Source: Lysobacterales bacterium
Lineage (GTDB): Bacteria > Pseudomonadota > Gammaproteobacteria > Xanthomonadales > SZUA-5
NCBI GenBank assembly: GCA_022844165.1
Contig: JALHMH010000019.1
Location: 20,740 to 84,739 of the forward strand
DNA length: 64,000 nucleotides
Direction: 5' to 3'
Shown here one piece after another: positions 4,871 to 25,282 of the stretch. The notes beneath the pieces are model-generated. The model did not search any database and was not told the DNA's origin. It was given only the letters and a program-made list of their open reading frames with translations. A program made the translations under genes and the position numbers. How positions within the stretch are numbered: the first letter of the stretch is position 1; the number at the start of each line of letters is the position of its first letter.

Positions 4871-5612
4871 GCCAATTCTCACGCTGCTTCTCGCGCTCGT
4901 TGGCAGCGTCGCTGCAGCTGCAGGGCCTGGCCCGAAGCTGCTCAACGCCGGCACGAATATCTCGGACACTGCTTCCTTGCAACGAGGTGCGCAGTTGTAC
5001 TTCAACTATTGCGCGAGCTGCCATTCTTTGCAGTACATGCGGTACTCGCGGATGGCTGAAGACCTGGAGCTGACAGAAGATCAGGTCATGAAATACCTGA
5101 ATTTCACCGGCGCGAAGTTCGGCGAGACCATCACCACGAATATGCCGGTCGGTGCAGGCGAGGCGACGTTCGGTGGTGAGGACTGGTTTGGCAAGGCACC
5201 GCCTGATTTGTCGTTAGTGGCGCGTGCACGCAATGACGGTCCAAATTGGATTTACACCTACCTTTTGTCGTTCTATCCCGATCCAAGCCGCCCGGTGGGC
5301 TGGAACAATACGGTGTTCCCGAATGCCAGCATGCCGCATGTCATGTGGGATCGGCAGGGTGTGCAGGTGCTCGTCCAGCAGACCGATGACGCCGGTCAGG
5401 AAACGACAGGATTCGACTTGATCCGTGAGGGCAGCCGCTCACCTGAGCAGTACCGTCAAGATGCGCGCGATGTGGCAACGTTCCTGGAGTACGTGGGTGA
5501 GCCTGCTGCGCTTCAGAGGGAACGCTATGGATTGTGGGTTCTGCTGTACCTTCTGCTGTTCACAGGCGTTGCGTATTTGTTGAAGCACGAATACTGGAAG
5601 GACGTTCATTGA
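4863..5612 (+). CDS. petC: Cytochrome c1
   Basis: Signal peptide, CASCH heme motif, PPDLSL, C-terminal TM ending EYWKDVH. Confidence 0.96.
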   Translation: MTKPILTLLLALVGSVAAAAGPGPKLLNAGTNISDTASLQRGAQLYFNYCASCHSLQYMRYSRMAEDLELTEDQVMKYLNFTGAKFGETITTNMPVGAGEATFGGEDWFGKAPPDLSLVARARNDGPNWIYTYLLSFYPDPSRPVGWNNTVFPNASMPHVMWDRQGVQVLVQQTDDAGQETTGFDLIREGSRSPEQYRQDARDVATFLEYVGEPAALQRERYGLWVLLYLLLFTGVAYLLKHEYWKDVH

Positions 5613-5669
5613 CACTCTGGGCGCCGCGCAGCGGCGCCCAACTTCCCACCGAACCGGATCCGTTCCGCC

Positions 5670-6680
5670 ATGGTCAATATCGGGCTGTTTGGGCGCTTTG
5701 TGCCTTTACAGTCACTGACGCCCGCCGATCGAACGCAGTTGGCCAAACAATCGAGTTTGGTCAGCTATCAACCTGGGCAAGTGATTTTCAATCGCGGCGA
5801 AATGGCCAGGACGCAGGCCTTCTTGATTGAGGGCGAAATCGACCTGGTGGATGGCGCGCAACGGGCGAATCGTCTGCTCGCTGGTCAGGCCGAAGCCAAA
5901 CATGCGCTGGCACCAGGCCACCGCCGCTCGTCCACCGCTTGTTGTGTCAAGGCATCTCAGGTGCTGTTTGTCGATCGAGAGCTGCTCGACGTCATGTTGA
6001 CGTGGTCGCAAACAGGAAATGTCGATGAGGCATCGCGCGATAGCGACTGGGTGACGGCGTTGTTGCAGAGTAAGGCGTTTTTACGCATCCCGCCAGGAAA
6101 CATTGCGCAGATTTTGGCGAGTATGGAATCCTTACAGGTTGAAGCCGGCGAGATTATTCTGCGGCAGGGCGACCCAGGCGACTACTACTACGTGATCACC
6201 GACGGTCGAGCCCAGGTTGTTTTGGAAGACGGGCATTCTGAAGAGGAACTGGCCTTGTTGGGTGTTGGGCGTGGTTTCGGCGAAGAGGCACTGGTTTCGG
6301 GCGAGCCGCGCAATGCAACAGTACGGGCGCTGACGCGCTGCAAGTTGATGCGACTTGCCAGCGCCCAGTTTTCGCGCTTACTCAAAGCGCCGATGCTGCG
6401 TGAGGCCGTGCTGGCAGACTATCGAACCGGTGTGCACCTCATTGATGTGCGGCTACCCGGTGAGTTCGAGCGGGGCCATATGGTGGGTGCGGCCAATATT
6501 CCATTGGCCAGAATCCGTGACGCGGCGCGGCTCCTGGATCCGGAGCTGGAATACTGGGTCTATTGCGATACCGGCCGCCGCAGCGCCTCCGCGACCTTTC
6601 TGCTTGCAGAGCGCGGTTTTAATGCCAAACTGATCAAAGGTGGCGTAACCTCGGATCAATTGAGCGTGATGGCGGCTTAG
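5670..6680 (+). CDS. Tandem cyclic-nucleotide-binding domain protein with C-terminal rhodanese domain
   Basis: Two cNMP-like domains (second has GFGEEAL...PRNATV); rhodanese DVR.P.EFERGH and YCDTGRRS. Confidence 0.82.
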   Translation: MVNIGLFGRFVPLQSLTPADRTQLAKQSSLVSYQPGQVIFNRGEMARTQAFLIEGEIDLVDGAQRANRLLAGQAEAKHALAPGHRRSSTACCVKASQVLFVDRELLDVMLTWSQTGNVDEASRDSDWVTALLQSKAFLRIPPGNIAQILASMESLQVEAGEIILRQGDPGDYYYVITDGRAQVVLEDGHSEEELALLGVGRGFGEEALVSGEPRNATVRALTRCKLMRLASAQFSRLLKAPMLREAVLADYRTGVHLIDVRLPGEFERGHMVGAANIPLARIRDAARLLDPELEYWVYCDTGRRSASATFLLAERGFNAKLIKGGVTSDQLSVMAA

Positions 6681-6797
6681 ATGCTGCCGATATCGATTGT
6701 CCGCGAACGGGTCGTCATCTGAGCGCTATTCCCAGCTTTTCGCGCAGACACTGCATTGAGCAGAACTGATCGACCAGCATTTTTTTTCGGAGCCCAC

Positions 6798-8162
6798 ATG
6801 CAACAACGAATTAGCGCACGCATCAATCCAGAAGTCGGGATGGATGTGCTTTCGAAAGCCGAAGTCCGGCGACTTATGGAAGCGACCACCGGCAGTCTTT
6901 ATCCGCTATTTCGCCAGTGCGCGTTAGCGGTGTTAACCACTGGCAGCGAGTCCGATAGTGCGCGAGCTGTATTGGCGCGTCATCCCGATTTCGACGTGCG
7001 CGTCGTGCAACAAGATCGCGGCGTAAAGCTCGACTTGATCAACGCCCCGGCCGGCGCTTTTGTCGACGGCGAGATTGTTCGCGGCATTCGGCATCTGTTG
7101 TTTGCCGTGCTGCGTGACATCCTTTATGTCGAGAACGAAATCAAGACCCGCGCCAACTTCAACGAACCCGAGGGCATTACCAATGCCGTCTTCGACATCC
7201 TGAGAAACGCGGGAATTTTGCGGGCTGCCCGCGAGCCCAATCTGATCGTGTGCTGGGGCGGACATTCGATCGGGCGCACAGAGTACGAGTACACAAAGAA
7301 AGTCGGTTACGAACTCGGTTTGCGCGGCCTGGATATCTGCACCGGATGCGGACCAGGCGCCATGAAGGGGCCGATGAAAGGTGCGACCATCGCGCACGCC
7401 AAGCAACGATTCACCGACACGCGCTACATCGGCATCACCGAACCCGGGATTATTGCAGCTGAGTCGCCCAATCCGATTGTCAATCATCTGGTGATCATGC
7501 CGGACATCGAGAAGCGCCTTGAAGCCTTCGTGCGAGTTGGGCACGCGATCATCGTGTTCCCCGGTGGCGTCGGTACAGCCGAGGAAATCCTTTATCTGCT
7601 TGGCATCCTGCTGCACCCGGACAATGCCAGTTCGCCATTCCCGGTGGTATTCACGGGGCCCAAACAGAGCGCGGCATACTTCGAGCAAATCGACGCATTT
7701 TTGCGCCTCGTGCTTGGCGATGAGGCCGCATCCCGGTACAAGATCATTGTGGATCATCCACGCGAAGTGGCGCAGTACCTGCGTGAGCAAATGAGCCTTG
7801 TCACTGAGCATCGTATCGAGGCGAAAGACGCCTTTTTCTACAATTGGACGCTCCGGATTCCCGAGGCTTTTCAGCATCGTTTTGCGCCGACTCACGAAGC
7901 GATGGCAAAACTCGAATTGCATCGCGGGCGTCCCGTGCATGATCTCGCAGCCGACTTACGCCGAGCATTTAGCGGCATCGTGGCGGGCAACGTGAAAGAG
8001 GAGGGGATTCGCGCCATTGAGGCGCATGGTCCCTACGAAATCAGCGGTGAACCCGCCATCATGAGCGCGATGGATGCGCTGTTGCGCGCGTTCGTCGAAC
8101 AACATCGCATGAAACTGCCCGGCGGCGAAGCTTACAAGCCGTGCTATCAAATCAAGTTGTGA
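6798..8162 (+). CDS. ppnN: Nucleotide 5'-monophosphate nucleosidase PpnN (YgdH, LOG family)
   Basis: VCWGGHSI, CTGCGPGAMKGPMKGA, PDIEKRLEAF and FPGGVGTAEE; start set at ATG 6798 after GGAG. Confidence 0.93.
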   Translation: MQQRISARINPEVGMDVLSKAEVRRLMEATTGSLYPLFRQCALAVLTTGSESDSARAVLARHPDFDVRVVQQDRGVKLDLINAPAGAFVDGEIVRGIRHLLFAVLRDILYVENEIKTRANFNEPEGITNAVFDILRNAGILRAAREPNLIVCWGGHSIGRTEYEYTKKVGYELGLRGLDICTGCGPGAMKGPMKGATIAHAKQRFTDTRYIGITEPGIIAAESPNPIVNHLVIMPDIEKRLEAFVRVGHAIIVFPGGVGTAEEILYLLGILLHPDNASSPFPVVFTGPKQSAAYFEQIDAFLRLVLGDEAASRYKIIVDHPREVAQYLREQMSLVTEHRIEAKDAFFYNWTLRIPEAFQHRFAPTHEAMAKLELHRGRPVHDLAADLRRAFSGIVAGNVKEEGIRAIEAHGPYEISGEPAIMSAMDALLRAFVEQHRMKLPGGEAYKPCYQIKL

Positions 8163-12256: not shown

Positions 12257-13771
12257 ATGACCACGATCCGCCAAGACGACTTGATCCAGAGCATCGCCGA
12301 CGCTCTGCAATACATCAGCTACTATCATCCAGAAGATTACATCAGCAATCTGGCGGCAGCTTACGAGCGCGAAGAGTCGCCGGCTGCGCGCGACGCAATT
12401 GCGCAGATACTGATCAACTCGCGAATGTGCGCCGAAGGCCATCGGCCGATCTGTCAGGACACCGGCATCGTCACCGTGTTCCTGAAAGTCGGCATGGCCG
12501 TGCGTTGGGACGCAACCCTGTCGCTCGACGATATGGTCAATGAGGGTGTGCGTCGAGCTTATAATCATCCAGACAATAAGCTGCGCGCGAGCGTTCTGGC
12601 CGATCCGGCTGGCAAGCGCAGCAATACCAAGGACAATACGCCGGCCGTGATCAACGTATCGCTGGTCCCTGGCAACACGGTGGACGTAACGGTCGCGGCC
12701 AAGGGCGGTGGATCAGAGGCCAAGAGCAAATTCGCGATGCTCAACCCTTCCGATTCGATCGTCGACTGGGTGTTGAAAACGGTGCCAACCATGGGCGCCG
12801 GATGGTGTCCACCTGGCATGCTCGGAATCGGCATTGGTGGAACTGCCGAGAAGGCGATGCTGCTGGCGAAAGAATCGCTGATGGAGCCAATCGACATTCA
12901 AGATCTCAAAGCGCGAGGTCCGGCCAACAGGGCGGAGGAACTTCGCCTGGAGCTATACGACAAAGTCAATGCGCTTGGTATCGGTGCGCAGGGCCTGGGT
13001 GGGTTGACCACGGTGCTCGACATCAAAGTTAAGGACTATCCAACGCACGCTGCGAACTTGCCCGTGGCCATCATTCCCAATTGCGCTGCAACTCGGCACG
13101 CGCACTTTGTACTCGATGGCTCCGGGCCGGTGATGTTGGAGCCACCATCGCTCGATGCGTGGCCCAGGTTGACCTATGACACCAGCAAGGGTCGCCGCGT
13201 GAATCTTGACACGGTGACGCGTGAGGATGTGGCGAGTTTTCAGCCAGGTGAAGTGATTTTGCTTTCTGGGAAACTGCTGACTGGCCGCGATGCGGCTCAC
13301 AAGCGGATGATTGACATGCTCAATCGCGATGAGCCGTTGCCGGTGGATTTCAACGGGCGATTCATTTACTACGTCGGGCCGGTCGATCCGGTGCGCGACG
13401 AAGTGGTTGGGCCGGCGGGGCCAACAACCGCAACGCGCATGGACAAGTTCACGCGCACGCTTTTGGAAAAAACCGGATTGCTCGGAATGGTTGGCAAAGC
13501 CGAACGCGGGCCTGCGGCGATTGCCGCAATTGCTGAATTCGGCGCCGTGTATCTGATGGCCGTTGGCGGTGCGGCGTATCTGGTATCCAAGGCGATCAAA
13601 GGCGCGCGCGTTGTGGCATTCGAGGATCTTGGAATGGAAGCGATCTACGAGTTCGATGTACGCGACATGCCAGTGACAGTTGCTGTGGACAGTCGTGGTA
13701 TGTCGGTTCACGAAACTGGCCCGAAACTATGGCAGGCCCGGATCGGCAAAATCCCCGTGGTTGTGGCCTGA
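12257..13771 (+). CDS. fumA: Fumarate hydratase class I (Fe-S)
   Basis: [38 protein letters not shown] and GPTTATRMD. Confidence 0.93.
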
Positions 13772-13784
13772 GCCGCGCCGCGAT

Positions 13785-14321
13785 ATGCCTGGGACTCGAT
13801 ACCGTCCGCCCGGTTCGCCGTCCACGGCAATTATTACGCCTGAGGGACAGCGCGCCCTGAAGGTCGAACTCGACGAACTCTGGCGAGTGAGACGCCCTGA
13901 GGTCGTTATCGCATTGGCTGCGGCTGCCGCAGAGGGTGATCGTTCAGAGAACGCGGAGTACACCTACCGCAAGCGGCAACTGGGTGAAATCGATCGGCGC
14001 GTGCGGTATCTGACGAGGCGCCTCGAATCGCTGCGGGTCGTGAGTGACCCACCCAGCGACATCCGTCGCGTCTATTTTGGCGCCTTTGTCGAAATCGAAT
14101 ATGTCGATACCGGCGATATCAGCCGGTTGCGTATTGTGGGTCCCGATGAGACCAGTGCTGCCAAAGGCTGGATCAGTGTCGATGCCCCATTGGCGCGGGC
14201 GCTCCTGAAGCGCGGCGTGGATGATGAGATCGAAGTTGAATTGCCCGCAGGCTTACGCCGTGTGTGCGTGTTGAGCGTTCGGTATGATCGCGCGCCGGAC
14301 GTTCTGATCGACAAGGATTGA
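13785..14321 (+). CDS. greB: Transcription elongation factor GreB
   Basis: ITPEG...[46 protein letters not shown]; start ATG 13785. Confidence 0.93.
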
Positions 14322-14322
14322 T

Positions 14323-14970
14323 GTGTTCGAAATATTAAAGACCGGCGGGTTCATCATGATCCCGCTGGTGCTGGCATCGGTATTGATGATCGGCATCATT
14401 CTGGAGCGCTTCTGGAGCTTGCGCGTATCGAGTGTGCTGCCGCCGAAGCTCGGCGCAGAAGTACGCCAATGGGCGCGAACCGCAAAAATCGAGAAAGAAC
14501 ATCTCGACAAACTGCGCGATAACTCGCCGTTGGGCGCCGTGCTGGCCACGGTGGTCGCTAACCGTCAGCGCTCCCGCGACATCATCAGCGACAAGGCACA
14601 AGCCACCGGGCGACAAGTGGTGCATCGGTTGTCGCGATATCTGAACACATTGGGCACCATCGCCATCATCTCGCCGCTGCTGGGGTTGCTCGGTACAGTG
14701 AGCGGCTTGATTCGCATGTTTCTGGTGATCACCACCGCTGGTATCGGAGATGCGAACGCACTCGCGGGCGGTATCGGCGAAGCGCTGGTTGCAACGGCAG
14801 CGGGGCTTTGTGTTGCCTGCGTTGGTTACTTTTTCCATCGCTACTTTAAGGGCCATGTGCAGAATTTGGCGATGGCGCTCGAAGGCGAAGCAACGATGCT
14901 TATGGATAGCCTGGAAACAGCCGAGCCTACGCCGGTCGCGGCGCCGGCGCCACAGCGGGGCGCTCGATGA
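14323..14970 (+). CDS. exbB: MotA/TolQ/ExbB proton channel protein
   Basis: Three TM segments; SPLLGLLGTV.G; GIGEALVATAAGL. Confidence 0.85.
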   Translation: MFEILKTGGFIMIPLVLASVLMIGIILERFWSLRVSSVLPPKLGAEVRQWARTAKIEKEHLDKLRDNSPLGAVLATVVANRQRSRDIISDKAQATGRQVVHRLSRYLNTLGTIAIISPLLGLLGTVSGLIRMFLVITTAGIGDANALAGGIGEALVATAAGLCVACVGYFFHRYFKGHVQNLAMALEGEATMLMDSLETAEPTPVAAPAPQRGAR

Positions 14971-15386
14971 AGTTCACCAGCGACGACAATGACGACATCG
15001 AGATCAACATGATTCCGTTGATCGACGTCATCCTCGTGCTGCTGATTTTTTTTATGGCCACAGCGACATTCGACCAGAACTCGCGAATCAAAGTTGAGCT
15101 GCCTGAGGCCTCGTCGGAGCTGAAAAGCGATCAGGCGCAACCGTTGATGATCCAGATCGACGCTGAGGGTCGTTATTTCGTCAATAACAACGAAGTTCTG
15201 AATCCGAAAATTGAAACGCTGAAGGCGGCGATTGCACAAGTTGGCGCTGATCCGGCAGACAAACCTGTCGTTCTGCGCGCGGATGCGCGGGCCGAACATC
15301 AGGCTGTTGTGACGGCAATGGACGCGCTGGCGCAACTGGGTTTTCGCAATCTGTCGATCGCAACTGTGCGTGGTTCGGGAGAATGA
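14967..15386 (+). CDS. exbD: Biopolymer transporter ExbD
   Basis: INMIPLIDVILVLLIFFM and LRADARAEHQAVV. Confidence 0.88.
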   Translation: MKFTSDDNDDIEINMIPLIDVILVLLIFFMATATFDQNSRIKVELPEASSELKSDQAQPLMIQIDAEGRYFVNNNEVLNPKIETLKAAIAQVGADPADKPVVLRADARAEHQAVVTAMDALAQLGFRNLSIATVRGSGE

Positions 15387-15486
15387 TCCCGGGAGACATC
15401 GCGGTCGCGAAAGAAGTGTGCCTTGGTAGCAATCCGCTGATCAGATCGGCGATATTAGTCGCGCCCTTCTATTCGTCTGTCATGCC

Positions 15487-15774
15487 ATGGCTCGTTGGAT
15501 CGCACTCGGATTTACGCTTCTCTGCTTCGCCTCGTGCAGCTTTATGAGCACCAATCCTTTGCGTGGCATCGTAGCGCCGCTGGGCGTTGCCGTAGGCTCG
15601 TTCGTCACGCTGTTTTTGTTTTTGCAAACGCGCGTCGAGGGTATTGCCCGGTCTGGCAACGATCTGTACTTGACGGAAATCGCCAGGCGTGCGGCGGCGC
15701 AGAAGAACCAGCAGCAGGCTGCTGAGCGTTTGGATGGCCCACCAACGGATGCTGATTCGAAACAAGCGCCATGA
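15487..15774 (+). CDS. Small hypothetical membrane protein (2 TM)
   Basis: Two hydrophobic segments and a charged tail; ATGA overlap with the next gene. Confidence 0.6.
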   Translation: MARWIALGFTLLCFASCSFMSTNPLRGIVAPLGVAVGSFVTLFLFLQTRVEGIARSGNDLYLTEIARRAAAQKNQQQAAERLDGPPTDADSKQAP

Positions 15775-16958
15775 GCGGCTGGCGCTCGCCGTTTGCGAAG
15801 GCGGTGCTGGGAGTCCTGGGTCTGGGGGTGATGGCGCTTGCTTTTTTCGGCTTCCGGCCGGATCGCGTTCGAGTTGAAACAGCAGTCGCGGAGCATCGAG
15901 CGCTGACCGAGGCATTGCGCGAAGAAGGGCGACTGCGTGTTCGGCAACGCCATACGATCGCGGCACCATTGGCGGGATATATCGGCAGGGTCGAATTGCG
16001 CCCGGGCGATCGGGTTTCGGCCGGGCAAATCGTGGCGAGCATCAGCGCTGGTGCCGGTGCACTGCTCGACCCAGCGACAGCGGGTCGCCTGCAAGCCGAT
16101 TTGGCAGCGGCGCGTGCCAATATGTCGTCCGCACGCGCGCGCGTCAGTGGTGCCCGGGCTGCAGCGGAGTTGGCGGGCGCGGAGTGGCGCCGCATTGAGC
16201 CCCTGCTTGCGCGAGGCGCGCTGGCAGCGATGGATGGCGATCGAGCGCGGGTTGCCGCAAATCGTGCCAGCGACGACTACGACGCCGCTCGTTTTGCACA
16301 CGAACTGGCGCAGGCACAGGTTGCATCGATCCAAGCAGTTCTGGACCGGCAGGGCGATCGAGGAGAACAGCCGATCGATGTGACAGCGCCGGTTGCCGGC
16401 GTGGTTTTACATCGTTGGCGCGAGAGTCAGGGGCCAGTCCAGTCCGGAGAGCGCCTGATCGATATCGGCGATCCAGGGTCGTTGGAACTGGAAGTCGATT
16501 TGTTGTCTGCGGATGCTGTTCGGGTCAGTGAAGGAATGGTTGTGCGCTTACATCGCTGGGGAGGCGAGCCCTATTTGCAGGCCAGAGTGCGTCGAGTGGA
16601 GCCGGTGGCGTTTACCAAGGTTTCGGCCTTGGGTGTGGAAGAGCAGCGCGTCTGGGTCTGGTCCGACTTGACGTCGCCCGCCGAACAGCTACGCGTTGGC
16701 GATGGATATCGTGTCGAAGCAGAGTTCGTTCTTAGTGAGGCCGATGCTTTGGTGGTGCCTGATGCTGCTCTGTTCCGCAGTGAAATCGGCTGGGCAGTGT
16801 TCGTCGTTGACGAAGGCGTTGCGAAGCTGCGTGCCGTGCGTGTTGGAAGATCGAGCGGCATCGACACCGAAATCATAGACGGTCTGCGCCCTGGCGAATC
16901 CGTCATTGTGCATCCGGATGACCGCGTCGAAGACGGCAGTCGCGTCGACGCCGCATAG
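15771..16958 (+). CDS. Efflux periplasmic adaptor subunit (HlyD/MacA-like)
   Basis: N-terminal anchor, lipoyl half-motifs (APLAGY...GDRV; APVAGVV), helical hairpin, FTKVSALGVEEQRV, GDGYRVEA. Confidence 0.88.
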   Translation: MSGWRSPFAKAVLGVLGLGVMALAFFGFRPDRVRVETAVAEHRALTEALREEGRLRVRQRHTIAAPLAGYIGRVELRPGDRVSAGQIVASISAGAGALLDPATAGRLQADLAAARANMSSARARVSGARAAAELAGAEWRRIEPLLARGALAAMDGDRARVAANRASDDYDAARFAHELAQAQVASIQAVLDRQGDRGEQPIDVTAPVAGVVLHRWRESQGPVQSGERLIDIGDPGSLELEVDLLSADAVRVSEGMVVRLHRWGGEPYLQARVRRVEPVAFTKVSALGVEEQRVWVWSDLTSPAEQLRVGDGYRVEAEFVLSEADALVVPDAALFRSEIGWAVFVVDEGVAKLRAVRVGRSSGIDTEIIDGLRPGESVIVHPDDRVEDGSRVDAA

Positions 16959-17044
16959 TAGCAATGCGATCATCGGCCGAACCCTCGCGGTTTGTGCTGT
17001 AAACGCGTAAAGTTTAAGGCTCTTTCCCCTCGACGGTGATTGTT

Positions 17045-17701
17045 ATGGCTGCTGCCAAGAAGCCGGCAAAACCGGCCCCCAAGCCATCTCGAGCCAAACC
17101 TGCCCCGGTACGCCGCGCGACCGTACCGAAGCCAATTCCTGCCAAGTTGTCAGTCCGGAGTGCACCGATGAGCGAAGCCCCTCAAGACCGTAACGTCGAT
17201 CAGATCCGCGACATTTTGTTCGGTGGTCAAATGCGCGACTACGAGCGGCGTTTTGTCGAACTGGCGCAACGATTGGAAGAGGAAAATCAGCGATTGCGTC
17301 AAGACATGGACAAGCGACTTTCGATGCTCGACAAACGCCTTGAAGCCGAGTTCGACAAGCTCGGTAAGGCCTTGAAGCAGGAGACTGCCGATCGAACCCA
17401 AGGTGTCGACGATCTTGAATCGCGGACCTTACAAGCGCAAAGAACAATGCGATCTGAGTTGCAGGGCGCTGTGAAGTCGCTGGAGAGCGATCTTTGTGCA
17501 CGCGAAGCACGGATACGCGAGGAACTGGCGGAACTCAATCAGCAGTTGGCGGATCGCGCTGTCGAACTGCGCGCTGCGCAGAGCAAGTCCGATCAAGATT
17601 TGCGTGCGGACAAAGTCGGTCGGGGTGATCTGGCTGCCCTGCTCACCGAGGTCGCGTTGCGCCTGAAGGGTGAATTTGAGTTGCCCTTGCCGCGCAAGTA
17701 A
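17045..17701 (+). CDS. Hypothetical coiled-coil protein (first gene of the small-GTPase operon)
   Basis: K/P/A-rich tail, VDQIRDILFGGQMRDYE, long heptad region. Alternative start ATG 17168 has a GGAG RBS. The stop abuts the next start. Confidence 0.75.
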   Translation: MAAAKKPAKPAPKPSRAKPAPVRRATVPKPIPAKLSVRSAPMSEAPQDRNVDQIRDILFGGQMRDYERRFVELAQRLEEENQRLRQDMDKRLSMLDKRLEAEFDKLGKALKQETADRTQGVDDLESRTLQAQRTMRSELQGAVKSLESDLCAREARIREELAELNQQLADRAVELRAAQSKSDQDLRADKVGRGDLAALLTEVALRLKGEFELPLPRK

Positions 17702-19351
17702 GTGAGCGCGTATCGGCAACTGCGTGATCTGCTGCTCGGCGAAGAGCAGCGCGAACTGCAGCGCCAACAAGCGCAGATCGCCGCATTGCGCGCGACGCAG
17801 GATAATCTCGCATCGCAATTGCCGGCTTTGATCGAAACCGCGCAGAGTGGTCCACAAAAGGCAGCCTTGCAGCGTGCGCTGAGCCCGGCTGTCGCGGCAG
17901 CGTTGGACGACAGTGTACGCCGGGCCCCACAGAGCATCGTCGATGCGTTGTTCCCGATCATTGGTCCGGCGATCCGCAAGGCGATTGCCGAAGCACTCAG
18001 GAGTTTTGTGGTCGATCTCAATCGAGCCATGGAAATGAGTTTCACACCGCGTGGGCTCAAGTGGCGGATCGAATCCTGGCGAACGGGTGTTCCCTTTGCG
18101 CAGGTCGTCATGCGGCGTACGTTGAACTACAGCATCGACCACCTGTTTCTGATCGAGCAAGACGGAGGGATCTTGCTCTATCGCTATTCGGCACCAGAAT
18201 TGGCCGATCTGGACGCCGATGCGATCGCCGGGATGTTGACGGCCATCGGGGATTTTGTTCGTGATTCTGTGCAGTCCGATCACCGCGACTCATTGGGTTC
18301 TGCGACGATTGGTGAGCACGTGCTGATCGTGAAAGAAGGGCCACGCGCAAACCTCGCGGCGTTCGTGCGCGGCGTGCCGCCACAAGCGCTGCTCGATCGG
18401 CTCGCGCAGAAACTGGAAGATCTGCACCGTGCACACGGTGCGGCGAGTAGCGCTGGCGCTCCATTCGATTGGCAGATTGAAGCTGCGCGCCAGCTCGATG
18501 TTACGGCCGCCTTGTCAGCCAGCGCGGAAACTGCGCGCTCGCCTCTGCCGCGCTGGCCATTTTTCGTTTTGTTTCTGCTGCTGGCGGCAGGTGTTGCGGC
18601 ACTTGCCTGGTCAACTTTGCGGGAGCAAGAAGACCGTAGGCGTATCGAAGCGCTGGTCGGCCTGGAACCTGGTTGGCAAATGTTGTCACTAAGGCGCGAC
18701 GATGGCTGGCGGCTCAGGTTGTTGCGCGATCCAGACTCACGCTCGACCAGCGACCTGGAGCAGCGCACAGGTGCAGAGGTCAAAGTGGAGGAAAGCCCTT
18801 TTTTGAGCCTGGACGACGTGTCGGTCGCCACGCGCGCAAAACGCGCCTTAGCCCTGCCTGAGGATGTCCATTTGGCAGTCGTCGACGGTACGATGACTTT
18901 GTCCGGTCGCGTCGAGAACGCGTGGGCCGAACGCTATTTGCCGTTGGCGGCGACGCTGGCTGGCGTGCGACGGGTTGTAAATGAGCTTCAGATTGAGCTC
19001 TCCGATTTTGAGAAGCTCATGCAACTCAAACGGCAATTGGAACGGGGCGGATTAAGTTTCCCAAGGGGAGGGGTCGAGGTCGACGCCAATACCCGCGCAA
19101 AATTGAGCGCCGATGTTGCTGAGCTGCTGAGGCTGGCGGCGAAGCTGGACATCGCGCTGACTGCGACGGTCGCAGGTCGCAGCGACGAAGGTGGAAGTGT
19201 GGCGCGCAACCTCAGGCTGCGTGCCGAGCGCGCCAAAATACTGCATGATCTCCTCGTCGAGTCAGGGATGTCCGCTGATCGTATTCTGTACAACGCTGAC
19301 GATCCGCGGCCGGCGGCTCCGTTTGCCAATATGCGATGGGAGATTCAGTGA
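17702..19351 (+). CDS. Membrane protein: coiled coil + putative longin-like domain + TM + BON-like + OmpA-like C-terminal domain
   Basis: TM WPFFVLFLLLAAGVAALAW; BON-like VHLAVVDGTMTLSGRV...GVRRVVN; OmpA_C-like GRSDEGGSVARNLRLRAERA; cytoplasmic LFLIEQDGGILL...DADAIAGMLTAIGDF. Confidence 0.75.
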   Translation: MSAYRQLRDLLLGEEQRELQRQQAQIAALRATQDNLASQLPALIETAQSGPQKAALQRALSPAVAAALDDSVRRAPQSIVDALFPIIGPAIRKAIAEALRSFVVDLNRAMEMSFTPRGLKWRIESWRTGVPFAQVVMRRTLNYSIDHLFLIEQDGGILLYRYSAPELADLDADAIAGMLTAIGDFVRDSVQSDHRDSLGSATIGEHVLIVKEGPRANLAAFVRGVPPQALLDRLAQKLEDLHRAHGAASSAGAPFDWQIEAARQLDVTAALSASAETARSPLPRWPFFVLFLLLAAGVAALAWSTLREQEDRRRIEALVGLEPGWQMLSLRRDDGWRLRLLRDPDSRSTSDLEQRTGAEVKVEESPFLSLDDVSVATRAKRALALPEDVHLAVVDGTMTLSGRVENAWAERYLPLAATLAGVRRVVNELQIELSDFEKLMQLKRQLERGGLSFPRGGVEVDANTRAKLSADVAELLRLAAKLDIALTATVAGRSDEGGSVARNLRLRAERAKILHDLLVESGMSADRILYNADDPRPAAPFANMRWEIQ

Positions 19352-19851
19352 GCGAACTGGCGAGGAAAATTTGCCTGATGGGCGACTTTGGTGTCGGCAA
19401 GTCCAGCCTTGTCGCTCGCTTCGTGCGCAATACGTTCTCCGAAAAGTACCTGACAACCGTCGGCGTGAAGGTCGATAGCAAAGAAGTGACCGTCGATCGT
19501 CGAAACGTCAAGCTGGTGGTTTGGGATCTGGCGGGAAAAGCGGAACTCGATAGTTTGAACAAGTCTTATATCCGCGGCGCGCACGGCTTGATGCTGGTGG
19601 TCGATGGCACACGCGAGGCGTCGCTCCGTGCTGCGCTGTACCTATGGATGCAATCGCAGAAGCAACTGGCGCAGGTACCTGTCGTCATGCTGATCAACAA
19701 ACTCGACCTGATCGACAAGTGGGAAGTTTCGTCAGCAGATATCGTGCGGCTGTCCGAGAGTGTGCCGACTTTTCGTACCAGCGCGTTGTCGGGCGAAGGC
19801 GTCGAGGCGGCGTTCGCCGCACTCGCCAAGCGCCTGGTGGAGTCGGTATGA
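19348..19851 (+). CDS. Ras-superfamily (Rab-like) small GTPase
   Basis: G1 GDFGVGKSS, G2 YLTTVGV, G3 WDLAG, G4 NKLD, G5 TSAL; GTG start overlaps the upstream TGA. Confidence 0.92.
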   Translation: MSELARKICLMGDFGVGKSSLVARFVRNTFSEKYLTTVGVKVDSKEVTVDRRNVKLVVWDLAGKAELDSLNKSYIRGAHGLMLVVDGTREASLRAALYLWMQSQKQLAQVPVVMLINKLDLIDKWEVSSADIVRLSESVPTFRTSALSGEGVEAAFAALAKRLVESV

Positions 19852-21389
19852 GCAAGCGTGCTGAGTTGGCACAGACGGCGCTGATGCGCTTTTTGACGGA
19901 ACGGGCAAAACCCGTGATCCTGACGGTTTATCGGCAGCGCCAGGTGATTGAGGTCGAAGGCGACCCGGCGGTGTATGGTTTTCGAAATGGCGATTTCAGC
20001 GCGGTTCTGGAATTGGTCCGAAACTTGCTGGTTGGTGGCGATGCCAGCCGGCCGTCGGTTTGGCCGTTGGTTGATATTGGCAACAGACGGCATACGGGAA
20101 TTTTGTGGGTGCCGGATACGCCCAACGACTTCATCATCATCACCGATGCCGAACTGTGCGGTGAGGAATTGAGCGAGCGTCAGCAGGCGGCAAATGAACT
20201 CGCGTTGGTCAACATCGAAAAGTCGAAGACGATTCGCGAATTGAAACTCGTGCGCGACGAGTTGCAGGCAAAAACAACAGCACTGACTGAAACACATCGC
20301 TTTCAGCGCCGGCTGGTCGACACGCTATCACACGATCTGCGGACGCCCCTTACATCGATCAGCGGTTACGCCGCGCTGCTGGAGCCGCACCTGGCCGAGA
20401 ATCCGGTCACCATGCGCGCACTGAACGCAATCCAGCGAAACGCGACATATCTCAAGACGCTGGCCGAGAACTTGCTGCATCTGGCGGCCGCCGACAACAA
20501 CAATGCACCGTTGCAATCCCATCCGTTCGCGCTCGATCAATTGGCCGACGACATCGAGTCGATCATGCGACCAATGGCCGACAGCAAGCGCCTGCGTCTA
20601 AGCGTCGATTGGCAGTCCACCGCTCAGAAAATGCCGGTCTTCGACGATCTGCGCTTACGCCAGATTCTGCTGAATCTGGTGTCGAATGCTGTGCGTTACA
20701 CGCGCGAGGGCAGGGTCGATGTGGAACTGATGTACGACGGTGAACAGTTGATTGCGCGGGTTACAGACACCGGGATTGGTATCGCGCCTGAGTTCCACGA
20801 CAGTATTTTTGAGCCACTCAATCGGGGTGCCCAACAGGGTTGCGAAGGGGCCGGTCTGGGGCTCTCGATCGTGCGGCAATTGGTCGAAAAAATGGGTGGC
20901 AAGATCACTTTCCAATCGGCCGTTGGTATTGGTACGCGTTTTCAGGTGCTCGTTCCTGAGCAAACGCCAAGCGAAAACGTACCGCCTGTCACCGATCGCG
21001 CCGAGCCGCCTTTGCGTATCCGCAGTGAACGCGTCGTCATTGTCGATGACGACCCGGATGTTGCGGAGATGCTGGTCTGGTCGCTGCACGAGGTTGGTTT
21101 TGTGCCCCGACTGATGCACGATCCAGACGCCGTTTACCAACACGTCGCCGAGCAGCCGCCGGGCCTGATGATCATCGATGTTGATCTGGGTATGCGCTCG
21201 GGCCTGGCAGTCACTCAGGAACTGCGCCTGCGAGGTTACACAGGCTCGATCATTGTTTTTTCCGGCGCCAACAACACCAATACGCGGCAGGCAGCAAAAG
21301 CGGCTGGCGCAGACGCGTTTCTTGCCAAGCCGCTGGATATGCCCAAGTTTCTCTCCTGGATGAAACGGCTCTTGCCGTCGTCGGATTAG
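19848..21389 (+). CDS. Soluble hybrid sensor histidine kinase/response regulator
   Basis: H-box SHDLRTPL, N-box NLVSNAVRYT, DTGIGI, GAGLGLSIV, C-terminal REC (VDDD...IDVD...LAKP); no TM; ATGA overlap with the GTPase. Confidence 0.92.
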   Translation: MSKRAELAQTALMRFLTERAKPVILTVYRQRQVIEVEGDPAVYGFRNGDFSAVLELVRNLLVGGDASRPSVWPLVDIGNRRHTGILWVPDTPNDFIIITDAELCGEELSERQQAANELALVNIEKSKTIRELKLVRDELQAKTTALTETHRFQRRLVDTLSHDLRTPLTSISGYAALLEPHLAENPVTMRALNAIQRNATYLKTLAENLLHLAAADNNNAPLQSHPFALDQLADDIESIMRPMADSKRLRLSVDWQSTAQKMPVFDDLRLRQILLNLVSNAVRYTREGRVDVELMYDGEQLIARVTDTGIGIAPEFHDSIFEPLNRGAQQGCEGAGLGLSIVRQLVEKMGGKITFQSAVGIGTRFQVLVPEQTPSENVPPVTDRAEPPLRIRSERVVIVDDDPDVAEMLVWSLHEVGFVPRLMHDPDAVYQHVAEQPPGLMIIDVDLGMRSGLAVTQELRLRGYTGSIIVFSGANNTNTRQAAKAAGADAFLAKPLDMPKFLSWMKRLLPSSD

Positions 21390-23407
21390 AAGAGGACGCG
21401 AACGCCGGCCGTGACATTGCGGCCCGGCAGTGGCGCGCGATCCTTGAGGAAGGACGTGTGCAAGCGCGCGTCTTCATCGCTGAGGTTGTCGCCTTTCAGG
21501 TACAGATCGAAACTCGCTTGCTGTGCGTCAATCCGGTAACTGAGCGCGGCGTTCCATAGCGTGAAAGCGTCCGTTTCGCTTTCGAACTGAGCAGTCCGAT
21601 CCTGTTCGAAGTAGTGCACTGGTCCAGCGCTGGCGCGCCACGGACCTAGGTGCCAACGCACTTCAGCGCCGAATCGCGATTGGGGGATGCGTGGTAAGTC
21701 GTCGCCATCATCGATTCGCGCGCGGACCGTATCGGCGAATGCGCGAAGATCGAAGTGGCCGTTGTCCGTCTCGCTCAAGTGCCACACACCTTCTGCCTCA
21801 AAACCGGTAAAACGCGCATCGTCTTGTGACCACTCGCGCACCGGCAATTCATCTTCTTCCTCGCTTGTATCGGCCAAGAAAATGAAGTCGTCGAAACGGG
21901 CATGGAACGCGCTGACGCTGCCGTTGAAACGCTCGCCGCGGTACTTGAGACCAATCTCGAATTGGTTTGCGATTTCTTCGTCGAGATCTGCATCGCCAAT
22001 TTCGAAACTTCCGGTGGCGATGTGCGGGCCATCGGAAAACAACTCTTCGCTGTTCGGCAAACGCACGGCACGGTCTACGCCGACGTTCAGTGTCAGTCCG
22101 TCCATCAGATCGAACGATGCGCCCACTGCGGCGCTAAATCCGGAATGATCGGCGCTGGCGCCTTCGATATCGATAGCTTGAGTGTCGTAGCGCGCCCCAA
22201 GCTCCAGTCGCCACGTGCCGTAGTCTTTGCCTTCCAGCAAAAACAAACCGAACTGCTCGGTATCGCTGGGCGGAACAAAAGCCTCTTCGCCGGTGGCCGA
22301 AAAGTCCCGTTGCGTGAAGGTCAAGCCATAGGCGCCGCGCCAGCCGCCGATCTCGCCATGCACAATGTCCAGGCGGCCGGTCAGTTCCTGGTTGTCGAAC
22401 TCGGTACCGATTTCGTCACCTTCCAGTTCTACGTGGCCGTAATCGTTGTGGCTCAAGCGCACGCGCAGGCTCTCGGCGCTGGCGAAGGGGTTGTCGATAC
22501 CGCCTTTCAGATCGATGCGCGTTTGCTCAAGATCCAGGCGAACAACTTCTTCTTCGTCCTCTTCGCCTTTGGCGAAGGCATCGCTGTACTCCTCTTCGTG
22601 GCCATGACCTGGGATGCCGTAGTTGCTGTCATAGCGCGAAATCGACACGCCCAGGAATCCGCCCTCGCCAATCAAACTGGCGCCAATCGCGCCACCCTTG
22701 GCTTCTTGCGATGAGTTCTCCAGCACGCCTTCCGGTTCGTCTTCATCGGCATCCATTTCCGCTCGGCCCCGAATGTCGTAGTCCTCCGTATCACGATAGA
22801 AAGCATCGGCATGCAATACGAAACCTTCGGAACCGACATCGATTCGCGCCATGCCAAAAACGCTGTCGGCAACCGTGTCGGTGCCAAGTTGCGCGCGACC
22901 GGAGAACCCGTCTTCAATCGCCTGCTCGGCGATTCGACCGTCGAGCACGTTGACCACGCCGCCGACCGAACCTGGCCCGTACAACAACGTGGTCGGGCCG
23001 CGAAGCACTTCGATCTGGTCGGCCAGGAAAGGCTCTATGGTCACAGCATGATCGACACTGACGGTCGATACGTCCATCGACGAAGTGCCGTCGCTCAGCA
23101 CCTGTACGCGCGCACCGTCCTGGCCACGAATGATCGGTCGCCCGGCACCGGGGCCGAAGTAGCTGTTGTGCACACCAGGCTCGCGCATCAAAGTTTCGCC
23201 GAGGGTGGCGGCCTTACGTTCATCCAGAACCGCTCCCGTCAGTACGGTGGCCGGTTGAATCAGATCGCCAAACGTACCCTGACGCGGATCGGCTTTGACG
23301 ACGACCGCATCCAGTGCTTTGGCGTGTTCGTCGCTGTGGTTTTCTGCTGCGATTGTGGCGCCAGCAAGAGATTGTGCGATAAAGATGACCAGAAGACGCT
23401 TGCGCAT
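21386..23407 (-). CDS. TonB-dependent receptor, ZnuD-like (probable zinc uptake)
   Basis: Signal peptide, TonB box, plug GRPIIRGQDGARV...DHAV, His/Glu-rich loop YGIPGHGHEEE, GPHIAT, terminal Phe; Zur-like site upstream. Confidence 0.85.
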   Translation of the reverse strand: MRKRLLVIFIAQSLAGATIAAENHSDEHAKALDAVVVKADPRQGTFGDLIQPATVLTGAVLDERKAATLGETLMREPGVHNSYFGPGAGRPIIRGQDGARVQVLSDGTSSMDVSTVSVDHAVTIEPFLADQIEVLRGPTTLLYGPGSVGGVVNVLDGRIAEQAIEDGFSGRAQLGTDTVADSVFGMARIDVGSEGFVLHADAFYRDTEDYDIRGRAEMDADEDEPEGVLENSSQEAKGGAIGASLIGEGGFLGVSISRYDSNYGIPGHGHEEEYSDAFAKGEEDEEEVVRLDLEQTRIDLKGGIDNPFASAESLRVRLSHNDYGHVELEGDEIGTEFDNQELTGRLDIVHGEIGGWRGAYGLTFTQRDFSATGEEAFVPPSDTEQFGLFLLEGKDYGTWRLELGARYDTQAIDIEGASADHSGFSAAVGASFDLMDGLTLNVGVDRAVRLPNSEELFSDGPHIATGSFEIGDADLDEEIANQFEIGLKYRGERFNGSVSAFHARFDDFIFLADTSEEEDELPVREWSQDDARFTGFEAEGVWHLSETDNGHFDLRAFADTVRARIDDGDDLPRIPQSRFGAEVRWHLGPWRASAGPVHYFEQDRTAQFESETDAFTLWNAALSYRIDAQQASFDLYLKGDNLSDEDARLHTSFLKDRAPLPGRNVTAGVRVLF

Positions 23408-23489: not shown

Positions 23490-24674
23490 TCAGCCGTTCA
23501 GGAAACAGCTGACGGTATCGTTGAGATATCGATATCCAAGAGCGGTCGCTCGAATGGTGTTGCCGTTCTGCTCGATTAGCCCCCGCGCCAGCGCGTTCGC
23601 ATGACCTCTCCCGGCGAGCGCGCGCCCAGTGCGCTGTTCGAAGGTCTCGATGTCGAAACCGTTGGTGAGTCGTAACGCATTCAGGACGAACTCAAAGGGC
23701 AATTGTTCCGAGGCGATAATCCGGTCTTCAGCAATGCGCGACGCAGTGGCAAGATAGTCGTTCGGGTTGCGCACGCGCGTGCGGCGCCGAACCTGGAAGC
23801 CGCATTGATTTTCGTCGAACGTAGCCCGCTCGGTGCGAAGCGCAGGCGCGCTGGTCGTCTTGCTATGTGCACCGGCACCGATCGCGAGATAGTCGCCGAA
23901 GTTCCAGTAGTTCAGATTGTGTATCGAGCGCCGACCCTCCTTGGCGTAGGCGGAGACTTCGTATTGTCGCCATCCGGCAGCCGCGATGGCCGCCTGCGTG
24001 GCGTCCTGCATATCAGCCAATGCGTCGTCGTCTGGCAATTCGCGAGGCGGAAAACGTGCGAACACGGTTCCCGGTTCGAGCGTCAGCTGATAGTGCGACA
24101 AATGCTCTGGTGCCAGATCGCGCGCAGATTCAATATCGGCAAGCGCCAAGGCAATCGACTGAGCGGGCAGTGCGTACATCAGGTCGACGTTGATGTTATC
24201 GAATCCGGCAGCTCGCGCCATCCCAAACGCGCGTCGCGCTTCGGCGCCGCCGTGAATCCGGCCCAGGCGCTTCAGCGCCGCATCATCGAAACTCTGTACG
24301 CCAAACGAAAGTCGATTGACGCCGGCCTCCAGGTAGGCCTCGAAACGATCGAACTCCGCGGTACCCGGGTTGGTTTCCAGTGTGACTTCCGCACCCGGTG
24401 CTAAGCCGACGCGCTCGCGTACGCCTTCAAGAATGGCGCGCAGCGCCCCGCCGCTGAACAAACTTGGCGTACCGCCACCGAAAAACACCGAGATCAGTTT
24501 TCGTCCTTCGGCAAGCGGCGCCTCCTCCTCGAGATCGGCCAACAACGCGGCCACGTATCGTTCCTCCGGAATCTGCGCAGGCCGTTGATGCGAGTTGAAA
24601 TCGCAGTAGGGGCATTTGCGCACGCACCACGGGATGTGGATGTAAAGCGATAGCGGCGGCGGGAAAAATCTCAC
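23490..24674 (-). CDS. hemW: Radical SAM heme chaperone HemW
   Basis: LYIHIPWCVRKCPYCDFNSH, FFGGGTPS, YEVSAYA...HNLNYW; follows rdgB. Confidence 0.93.
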   Translation of the reverse strand: MRFFPPPLSLYIHIPWCVRKCPYCDFNSHQRPAQIPEERYVAALLADLEEEAPLAEGRKLISVFFGGGTPSLFSGGALRAILEGVRERVGLAPGAEVTLETNPGTAEFDRFEAYLEAGVNRLSFGVQSFDDAALKRLGRIHGGAEARRAFGMARAAGFDNINVDLMYALPAQSIALALADIESARDLAPEHLSHYQLTLEPGTVFARFPPRELPDDDALADMQDATQAAIAAAGWRQYEVSAYAKEGRRSIHNLNYWNFGDYLAIGAGAHSKTTSAPALRTERATFDENQCGFQVRRRTRVRNPNDYLATASRIAEDRIIASEQLPFEFVLNALRLTNGFDIETFEQRTGRALAGRGHANALARGLIEQNGNTIRATALGYRYLNDTVSCFLNG

Positions 24675-25282
24675 AGCAAGCGTTTCAGTTCCGCCAGAGC
24701 GCGTCCACGGTGGCTACGAAAGGCCTTGTCCGCGTGCAGCATTTGTGCGGCGCCCTTGCCCGTCTCTGGGTCAAAAAACACCGGATCGTAGCCGAAGCCG
24801 CCACTGCCCTGCGGCGCACGCAACAATTCGCCGCGCCAGATGCCCTGAGCGATCAATGGCAGTGGATCGTCGTGGCGTTGAATGAGTACCAGCACACACA
24901 CGAATTTGCAGCCACGCGCACCATCGGGAACATGCGCGGTGGCGCGCAGCAGTTTATCGATATGGGCCGCGTCGGGTTGTTGCTCGCCTGCGTAAACCGC
25001 GCTCTGCACACCGGGCGCGCCGAACAGGGCGTCGACCATCAATCCGCTGTCGTCAGCAAGCGTCGGCAGGCCAGTAGCTTGGGACACATGGCGGGCCTTG
25101 ATCAGGGCGTTTTCAACAAAACTGTTCGCCGGCTCGGCTGGCGCTGTCAGGCCAAATTCGCTCGCGAGTTTGAGGTCCACATCGCCCAACATCGTTCTGA
25201 ACTCGGCCAGTTTGCCAGGGTTGTGGGAGGCGAGAACCCAGGTTGGCGGCGATACACGTTGGGCGGACACATCCGGGTTCAT
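24671..25282 (-). CDS. rdgB: dITP/XTP pyrophosphatase RdgB
   Basis: [43 protein letters not shown]. Confidence 0.95.

Follow-up and report, generated by a model that had tools for sequence, protein, structure and literature searches.

The 64-kb window analysed here (64,000 nt of the forward strand of Lysobacterales bacterium contig JALHMH010000019.1, assembly GCA_022844165.1) contains an operon of four genes, in the following called g1 to g4, which encode a coiled-coil protein, a single-pass inner-membrane protein, a small Rab-like GTPase and a soluble hybrid histidine kinase (Table 1). We are confident that this operon is a gammaproteobacterial copy, of the Lysobacterales/Xanthomonadales type, of the Group 1 Rup module. 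Structure predictions further point to a peptidoglycan-anchored Roadblock platform (g2) that would control a Rab-like switch (g3), which in turn would act on the kinase (g4). We consider this overall reading probable, with moderate confidence.

Group 1 Rup proteins were described in 2014 as Ras/Rab-like GTPases lacking the G3 glutamine, and as the bacterial GTPases closest to eukaryotic Rab/Ras (Wuichet & Søgaard-Andersen, Genome Biol Evol 7:57, PMC4316618). According to the available text of that paper, three further genes are conserved in their neighbourhood, encoding a cytoplasmic coiled-coil protein, a protein that combines a conserved unknown domain with a membrane helix and an OmpA domain at its C-terminus, and an output protein. 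The output is either a kinase or a GGDEF/EAL protein with an invariant glutamine in its N-terminal region, and the hosts include Gammaproteobacteria. The same text states that no Rup system had been characterised, proposes a signalling system analogous to the actinobacterial conservon and speculates that the output glutamine acts in trans (PMC4316618).

All five features of this description are found in the window, namely a GTPase of the Rup branch, the absence of the G3 glutamine, a coiled-coil protein, a transmembrane/OmpA protein and a glutamine-bearing output, and we see no essential difference from the description as far as its available text goes. The first-pass annotation had stated that Rup-type GTPases occur beside two-component genes. 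This understated the published knowledge, which covers the exact four-gene neighbourhood as well as the signalling proposal (PMC4316618). As far as the literature search reaches, what may be unpublished is the predicted Roadblock/longin domain of g2 and the modelled interface of the GTPase with a glutamine-bearing helix of the output. The prediction that the N-terminal part of the output consists of a PAS-like domain and this helix is a further addition to the description.

A conserved four-gene block around a glutamine-less GTPase

The product of g3 matches the Pfam Ras family (PF00071) at 5e-34, and its best solved relatives are Rab1B, Rab1A, Ypt1, Sec4 and Rab35, at about 1e-30. The G1 motif GDFGVGKS, the switch-I threonine T37, the G3 motif WDLAGK, the G4 motif NKLD and the SAL motif are all present, and the DxxG aspartate D60 is invariant in the alignment of homologues. 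To this extent the complete set of G1–G5 motifs claimed by the first-pass annotation stands. The claim fails at the catalytic glutamine that follows DxxG in Ras and Rab; g3 carries Lys64 (19537-19539) in its place, and the missing glutamine is a hallmark of the group. Among 78 recognisable G3 motifs in 80 related loci, the residue after DxxG was never glutamine (R 26, K 23, A 8, S 8, E 4, T 4, N 3, G 2). These 80 loci, to which the counts below refer, are the best 80 of 570 confirmed relatives (595 pattern matches) in species-representative genomes.

The P-loop reads GDF[GA][VI]GK[ST] in 78 of the 80 homologues. Its phenylalanine (Phe14 of g3, 19387-19389) lies at what we take to be the position of Ras Gly12. 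A bulky residue there would hinder a classical arginine finger, and Phe14 falls within the predicted kinase interface described below. The GTPase has no C-terminal cysteine, and lipid anchoring appears unlikely because a cysteine among the last five residues was found in just 2 of 80 homologues.

Read from the sequence, the stop codon TAA of g1 is directly followed by the GTG start of g2, g2 and g3 overlap in GTGA, and g3 and g4 overlap in ATGA. An in-frame ATG at 19336 would extend g3 to 171 aa; the 167-aa reading is right because homologues begin at the GTG position, M1 being invariant in the alignment. For g4, the longest open reading frame (ORF) begins further upstream, and the ATG at 19848 overlaps the stop codon of g3. 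The ORFs, junctions and domains confirm four coupled genes, the operon and its gene content as first annotated, including a hybrid kinase with no transmembrane (TM) sensor, since g4 has no hydrophobic segment.

The arrangement recurs in the 80 loci, which are mostly from Gammaproteobacteria, with one Acidobacteria metagenome-assembled genome (MAG), and include strains of Dokdonella, Pseudoxanthomonas and Solilutibacter. Using BLAST with the window proteins, we found g2 adjoining the GTPase gene upstream in 57 of 64 loci, g1 and g2 upstream in 54 of 64 and the kinase downstream in 64 of 74; all partners were found in 44 of the 60 loci with both sides assessable. With profile hidden Markov models (HMMs), g2 was detected upstream in 58 of 64 loci, g1 in 59 of 64, both in 58 of 64 assessable loci and the full set of three partners in 57 of 63. 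In 79 of 79 loci that could be assessed, the gene directly downstream of the GTPase encoded a kinase-type N-terminal domain. These profiles were built from the same loci, so the tally is partly circular. At four loci (L025, L064, L069, L074) the tool selecting the downstream ORF had chosen wrong frames; they were left out of the alignment of the N-terminal region, and the HMM located the true domain there. Recurrence in dozens of genomes places the arrangement far beyond chance. The first-pass annotation had made its proposal depend on co-occurrence of the four genes in other genomes, and such co-occurrence is what these counts give.

Overlaps of 4 nt between start and stop codons connect g3 and g4 in 66 of 79 loci, and g2 and g3 in 50 of 63. 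The flanking genes vary between the window and most loci and the four-gene block is intact; the four genes travel as one block. Judged by reading of the sequences only, a shikimate kinase-like gene upstream and a pyridoxamine-phosphate oxidase-like gene downstream recur as neighbours, which indicates synteny and no partnership. Clustering of the flanks in search of a fifth gene was polluted by spurious high-GC ORFs.

Beyond these loci, a database search yielded 1124 relatives of the GTPase at E ≤ 1e-5 among 1341 candidates, named “Rab family GTPase” or “small GTP-binding protein” and largely from Xanthomonadales/Lysobacterales. Of 24 other genomes of the family, 22 had the GTPase at E ≤ 1e-10; the genome of the window has one copy. 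When the class was sampled evenly, 21 of 299 other genomes had the N-terminal region of g2; with the genome of the window counted in, it occurred in 20 of 271 genera. The module is thus scattered yet widespread.

This distribution bears on the idea that the GTPase and the membrane protein form an abortive-infection sensor in an anti-phage or conflict system. Defence systems containing GTPases exist, and matches of g1 to ZorA models were of a weak, coiled-coil kind (E 5e-4 to 9e-3). PADLOC, however, returned nothing for g2 and g3 and marginal matches only for g1 and g4, all within that same range. The operon is moreover a single chromosomal copy between housekeeping and transport genes, base composition is uniform across the window, the GTPase occurs in nearly all genomes of the family compared, and synteny is stable in relatives. 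A defence function is, in our judgement, extremely improbable.

Predicted folds of the membrane protein and the kinase, and a predicted interface

The architecture predicted for g2 consists of a cytoplasmic helical stalk with a Roadblock/longin domain, one TM helix, and BON and OmpA-like domains in the periplasm. The TM helix is the sole one predicted among the four proteins (Kyte-Doolittle maximum 2.26, windows ≥1.6). On the periplasmic side, the Pfam matches fall slightly short of the cut-offs, with 3.2e-5 and 24.6 bits for BON (cut-off 27) and 1e-5 and 26.2 bits for OmpA (cut-off 27.2). At E ≤ 0.01, BON was matched in 7 and OmpA in 21 of 56 g2 homologues. A profile made from these 56 homologues matched solved OmpA-like domains with values down to 3e-9 (PA0833-PD), the BON and OmpA-like protein Rv0899 at 6e-9 across both domains, and OsmY at 1.3e-4. 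Within the OmpA-like domain, the invariant residues are N503 and R510, while G492, D495 and G498 are close to invariant. The conserved D495, N503 and R510 are presumably the peptidoglycan-binding motif residues of such domains.

The cytoplasmic region of g2 is likewise conserved among homologues. An AlphaFold2 model of aa 1–290 (mean predicted local distance difference test score, pLDDT, 81.9) displays long helices over aa 2–128, followed by an alpha-beta-beta-alpha-beta-beta-beta-alpha unit. Searching with this model by Foldseek, we obtained 12 PDB matches at E ≤ 1e-3, all of them Roadblock/longin proteins (TRAPP subunits of the Bet5/Trs23 type, an Asgard Roadblock protein, LAMTOR, MglB and Fuzzy-Inturned); Mon1-Ccz1 narrowly missed this E-value. 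Comparison of the isolated domain by VIA-align gave Z 10.2–13.0 over about 100–130 residues for the top 50 rows. The best match was TRAPP 2j3t_D (Z 13.0, root-mean-square deviation (rmsd) 2.8, 125 residues aligned); Roadblock3 9jue_A (Z 12.2, rmsd 2.1, 102 aligned) and MglB 6hjm_E (Z 11.9, rmsd 2.1, 102 aligned) were close to it. At the level of sequence, there was no Pfam match for a Roadblock domain in g2, profile comparison with the PDB gave E ≥ 0.15, and Robl_LC7 had no match at E ≤ 0.01 anywhere in the genome of the window. On the strength of the models, the “unknown” cytoplasmic domain is predicted to have a Roadblock/longin fold.

Pairing of a Rab-like GTPase with a longin/Roadblock protein, as predicted for this operon, is familiar in eukaryotes from TRAPP-Rab1, Mon1-Ccz1-Rab7, Fuzzy-Inturned-Rab23 and Ragulator-Rag. 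Those platforms are soluble, are built of several subunits and act on lipidated Rabs at membranes, whereas here the predicted platform is itself the membrane anchor and the GTPase has no cysteine for lipidation. The likeness of the g2 model to the eukaryotic platforms is one of fold only.

Among bacterial systems, MglA-MglB of Myxococcus and Thermus likewise combines a small GTPase with a regulator of Roadblock fold. MglB structures align to the g2 domain with Z 11.4–11.9 and rmsd 2.1–2.6 over about 102–108 residues, and the fold alone is shared. In contrast to MglA-MglB, the DxxG aspartate is kept here, the GTPase is nearest to Rab1, Robl_LC7 is not matched, and there is a membrane and peptidoglycan anchor as well as a link to a kinase. 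MglA-type GTPases have a G3 motif without this aspartate, according to the available text of PMC4316618. With D60 invariant and Robl_LC7 absent from g2 and the genome, the operon was not assigned to MglA/MglB.

The likeness nevertheless suggests a spatial or polarity module in the manner of MglA-MglB, in which the GTPase and the Roadblock domain would mark a place in the envelope (a pole, the septum or a peptidoglycan feature) and recruit the kinase and the coiled coil, so that localisation rather than activity is switched. The nearness of the g2 fold to MglB is in keeping with such a module, and a coiled-coil partner together with a peptidoglycan anchor would suit a fixed landmark. The GTPase, however, falls in the Rab-like Rup branch: it has DxxG and shows no MglA-type features. 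Tight translational coupling to an enzymatic output with intact H162 and D444 speaks for control of activity, and there was no motility gene among the scanned flanking genes, although no search aimed at motility genes was made. We regard a spatial module as quite unlikely.

For the first 150 residues of g4 there was no Pfam match, and the protein has neither a HAMP match in Pfam nor a hydrophobic segment. The model of this region (pLDDT 83.4) consists of a helix, two strands, a helix, three strands and a long helix (aa 102–149) leading into HisKA. Structural matches to the domain were mostly PAS, LOV and PYP proteins and were weak: the best Foldseek value was 2e-3, and the best VIA-align row reached Z 7.7, none being ≥8. 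Because of this weakness, and because Roadblock/longin rows are mixed in with the matches, we call the domain PAS-like and no more.

Near-invariant residues in this region are G38, G63, D100, Q112 and Q113. Glutamine occupies position 112 in 73 and position 113 in 75 of the 77 downstream proteins, and the exceptions include wrongly picked ORFs. Very probably it is this QQ pair that the 2014 description, to judge from its available text, calls the “invariant glutamine” (PMC4316618). Further along the protein, H162 is a histidine in 67 and D444 an aspartate in 72 of the 77 downstream proteins. The retention of both residues indicates that the phosphorelay is functional in most copies, this one included, as far as can be judged from conserved residues. 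Domain assignments agree: HATPase_c was found in 70, HisKA in 67 and REC in 63 of the 77 proteins, a count that leaves out L033, L038, L085 and L092, where the downstream ORF is shorter than 300 aa. Neither these 77 proteins nor the 46 retrieved with a profile of the N-terminal domain (see below) included a GGDEF/EAL output, and all recognisable outputs were kinases. In NCBIfam the best match of g4, HrmK, lies far below the threshold (179 vs 725 bits), and the two papers found on HrmK show no link to a GTPase.

We then modelled g3 together with two copies of g4 aa 1–150, GTP and Mg, using our own alignments and three runs. The ipSAE scores for the GTPase and the kinase were 0.81, 0.80 and 0.81, against 0.16 for the best control. 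The mark applied to this score is reached by 58 of 80 solved complexes and by 2 of 110 mismatched pairs, a calibration that is approximate here in view of our own alignments and the accompanying GTP and Mg. The runs share ≥95% of their contacts, and the partner has a pLDDT of 89. Memory of a similar complex is an unlikely source of this score, because the kinase's N-terminal region has no solved sequence relative (E ≥ 0.18). The complex model, which the first-pass annotation had suggested building, thus passes its controls and supports binding between the GTPase and the kinase.

On the GTPase, the predicted interface comprises residues 5–7, 14–15, 34–44, 55, 57, 62, 70, 74, 76–79, 89 and 91. 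These include parts of the P-loop (14–15), switch I and strand beta2 (34–44), beta3 (55 and 57), the G3 alanine (62) and switch II (70, 74 and 76–79). On the kinase, it comprises a helix and loop (55–64), a strand (72–82) and a face of the long helix within 105–123 (105, 108–109, 112–113, 116–117, 119–120 and 123), so that the QQ pair is included. The GTPase surface predicted to contact the kinase is the one that an effector or a GTPase-activating protein (GAP) uses.

A signalling route and the direction in which it runs

Roadblock/longin folds serve as GAP platforms or as platforms of guanine nucleotide exchange factors (GEFs) for small GTPases, as in MglB, Ragulator, TRAPP and Mon1-Ccz1. With this role in mind, we propose a mechanism that, in the detail given here, has about an even chance of being right. 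g2 would sit in the inner membrane and grip the peptidoglycan with its BON and OmpA-like domains, while its helical stalk would present the Roadblock/longin domain to the cytoplasm. This platform would bind the soluble, unlipidated g3, whose nucleotide state would be set by the state of the envelope. GTP-bound g3 would then use its P-loop, switches I and II and the strands between them to dock onto the PAS-like domain of the kinase and the signalling helix that leads into the dimerisation and histidine phosphotransfer (DHp) domain. Docking would alter the kinase or phosphatase output and so the phosphorelay through Hpt and response regulator proteins encoded elsewhere. The kinase may also act as a GAP, because g3 lacks the catalytic glutamine and the near-invariant QQ pair lies beside the predicted contact with the P-loop and G3. 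The QQ helix would supply a glutamine in trans, and the signal would time itself out. g1 may be a coiled-coil scaffold or a co-regulator with invariant arginines.

GAPs that provide catalytic residues in trans are known, among them TBC RabGAPs with their Gln and Arg fingers and Rap1GAP with its Asn thumb. The situation predicted here is similar in that a glutamine-less GTPase meets a partner whose invariant glutamine pair faces the P-loop and G3. It differs from TBC and RapGAP proteins in that the partner is a helix leading into the DHp domain of a histidine kinase. The general point that a catalytic residue is supplied in trans was made before, in the available text of PMC4316618.

The first-pass annotation had proposed that an envelope-anchored receptor controls the GTPase, whose nucleotide state is read by the soluble kinase. 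This order of components fits the Roadblock/longin model of g2 and the complex model that passed its controls. The reading of the nucleotide state and the direction of signalling, like the step from the fold to GEF or GAP activity and the catalysis by a glutamine in trans, are what we infer from these models.

Several observations weigh against a platform–GTPase–kinase route. The binding of g3 to the Roadblock domain of g2 is proposed by analogy with other Roadblock proteins. The score of the GTPase–kinase complex is the model's own confidence, and its interface is known as lists of residues. The N-terminal domain of the kinase is weakly PAS-like, and we have not filed it as PAS. The variable replacement of the G3 glutamine would also fit a slow, GAP-independent switch. 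At 6 of 64 loci (L019, L049, L051, L059, L065 and L086) the pair of GTPase and output occurs without adjoining g1 and g2, so that the need for the membrane protein in cis is not universal. Kinase domains were undetectable in 7 of 77 outputs, some of which are wrongly picked ORFs. A search with a profile of the N-terminal domain, weak in that it scored only the 7998 candidates sharing most words, retrieved 46 proteins, all hybrid kinases or proteins without a precomputed Pfam domain, the latter being about 10 of the 46. As some outputs are without detectable kinase domains, the output is not always phosphotransfer. No gene for an Hpt protein or response regulator linked to the operon was found; all 14 places in the genome with a match to Hpt lie away from the operon, and two of these matches are in short frames (101 and 162 aa). 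Within the literature covered by the search, finally, there was no functional study of Group 1 Rup proteins, as the first-pass annotation had supposed, and no paper naming the fold of the unknown domain; plant RUP proteins swamp the search term “Rup”.

The Pfam-less outputs of 453–492 aa are P0126–P0129, P0133, P0140, P0145, P0151, P0156 and P0161, to which L051:7492-8868 can be added. Outputs without Pfam kinase domains are candidates for degenerate or kinase-dead proteins. In one MAG, the complete set of four genes (L079) and a copy with the GTPase–output pair alone (L049) occur on separate contigs. At L019, a Lysobacterales MAG, positions 4300–6800 in the space of g1 and g2 contain short ORFs only and a 74-aa g1-like fragment (6553-6774), which suggests that the upstream half of this locus is decayed or misassembled.

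The nearest system with bench data is the actinobacterial conservon (CvnA-D; Mfp) (PMC4316618, PMC13343842, PMC13621833, PMC13015309, PMC11343762). As far as the available text of these papers goes, the conservon combines an MglA-type GTPase, a stand-alone Roadblock protein, a membrane-bound HAMP kinase and, as fourth protein, a DUF742-type putative GEF. Here, in contrast, the GTPase is Rab-like, the predicted Roadblock domain shares one protein, g2, with a TM helix and a peptidoglycan-binding domain, the hybrid kinase is soluble with neither a TM segment nor a HAMP match, and the fourth protein is a coiled coil of no family. With its kinase free of TM and HAMP segments, its fused Roadblock domain and its Rab-like GTPase, the operon was not classed as a conservon.

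The comparison raises the question of direction. In an inside-out arrangement, the PAS-like domain of the kinase would sense a cytoplasmic cue, so that the kinase is both input and GAP, and the GTPase would act on g2 as its effector, altering the grip on peptidoglycan or its organisation. Such wiring would resemble the conservon, for which an output role of the GTPase has been proposed, or envelope tethers of the MotB/Pal type. The likening of Group 1 Rup systems to the conservon, with its GTPase proposed as output, speaks for it within the available text of PMC4316618. The PAS-like module could moreover bind a ligand, and the receiver of g4 could take input from another kinase. On the other hand, the Roadblock/longin proteins in the matched structures are, to our knowledge, regulators of GTPases or platforms for them and not effectors. 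The predicted interface between the GTPase and the kinase uses the switch regions, as is typical of effectors and GAPs, and the retention of the GTPase–output pair at the six loci without adjoining g1 and g2 would be odd if g2 were the output. We consider the inside-out arrangement rather unlikely, and favour the route from the g2 platform through the GTPase to the kinase.

A more far-reaching form of this favoured route is a self-timing switch, in which g2 loads the GTPase on a cue from the cell wall, and the kinase is at the same time effector and, by way of its QQ pair, GAP. If the longin domain of g2 were truly homologous to the eukaryotic ones, the pair of Rab and longin would be bacterial and could have entered eukaryotes together. 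We treat this extension as doubtful.

Locus features, surroundings and implications

The features of the operon are collected in Table 1.

Table 1 Genes, domains and sites of the four-gene operon in window coordinates.
Feature	Position (nt)	Residues (aa)	Strand	Basis
g1, coiled-coil protein	17045 (ATG) or 17036 (GTG) to 17701	218 from ATG, 221 from GTG	+	ORF
g2, single-pass inner-membrane protein	17702-19351	549	+	ORF
g2 Roadblock/longin-fold domain, predicted	18125-18526	142-275	+	AlphaFold2 model, Foldseek, VIA-align
g2 transmembrane helix	18542-18622	281-307	+	Kyte-Doolittle 19-residue window
g2 BON-like domain, periplasmic	18812-18994	371-431	+	Pfam BON sub-threshold, family profile
g2 OmpA-like peptidoglycan-binding domain	19058-19291	453-530	+	Pfam OmpA sub-threshold, family profile
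g3, Rab-like (Rup Group 1) small GTPase	19348 (GTG)-19851	167	+	ORF, Pfam Ras
g4, soluble hybrid histidine kinase	19848-21389	513	+	ORF, Pfam
g4 GTPase-facing module, predicted: PAS-like domain and signalling helix	19848-20294	1-100 and 102-149	+	Model
g4 near-invariant glutamine pair	20181-20186	Q112, Q113	+	Alignment
g4 HisKA		153-217, H162	+	Pfam
g4 HATPase_c		266-372	+	Pfam
g4 receiver (Response_reg)		396-502, D444	+	Pfam

The coiled-coil protein g1 begins with a variable basic N-terminal tail, followed by the conserved motif NVDQIRDILFGGQMRDYERRF and a long helical region; at the C-terminus, KVGRxDLAALLTExALRL is conserved. In an alignment of 35 homologues, R58, F62, G63 and R72 within the short motif are invariant (221-aa numbering). 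The Lys/Pro/Ala-rich tail (17045-17200) varies in length and sequence among homologues and is missing in some. The protein is helical and coiled-coil-like, with no hydrophobic segment. It matched no Pfam or NCBIfam family above the cut-off, its profile matches were amphipathic-helix proteins only, such as apolipoproteins, and are of the composition type, and a search of the ESM Atlas gave unnamed “hypothetical protein” clusters only.

Upstream of the operon and on the same strand (13680-16958) lie genes for a GreA/GreB-like protein, ExbB (MotA_ExbB), ExbD and an HlyD-family adaptor. Downstream follows a convergent gene for a TonB-dependent receptor (21386-23407, minus strand). These TonB-system surroundings are probably incidental, because most related loci have other flanks. 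At 23490-25282 on the minus strand, a HemN-like radical SAM gene (Pfam) is followed by a 203-aa ORF that has, by eye only, the look of an NTP pyrophosphatase of the RdgB/HAM1 type; the two are ordinary housekeeping genes. A scan of 16800–21700 for promoters and terminators was uninformative, the counts (promoter-like sites 0; terminator-like sites 2, within genes) being lower than in shuffled sequences. Among the sequencing runs listed for the 4.35-kb stretch there were DNA runs from two studies and no RNA data.

The locus itself is a typical copy of a catalogued module, and its interest comes from the closeness of the group to the question of where the Rab/Ras family is rooted. The available text of PMC4316618 argues that the eukaryotic Rab/Ras lineage was acquired from bacteria by horizontal transfer. 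What the analysis adds is a concrete, predicted three-part model, in which a peptidoglycan-anchored Roadblock/longin platform, a glutamine-less Rab-like switch and a kinase that docks with its QQ helix would work together. Carriers of the module include cultivable relatives, namely the strains of Dokdonella, Pseudoxanthomonas and Solilutibacter. If the model is true, it would place a G-protein layer between envelope sensing and the two-component phosphorelay in Gram-negative bacteria, and it would bear on the origin of the partnership between Rab GTPases and longin domains.

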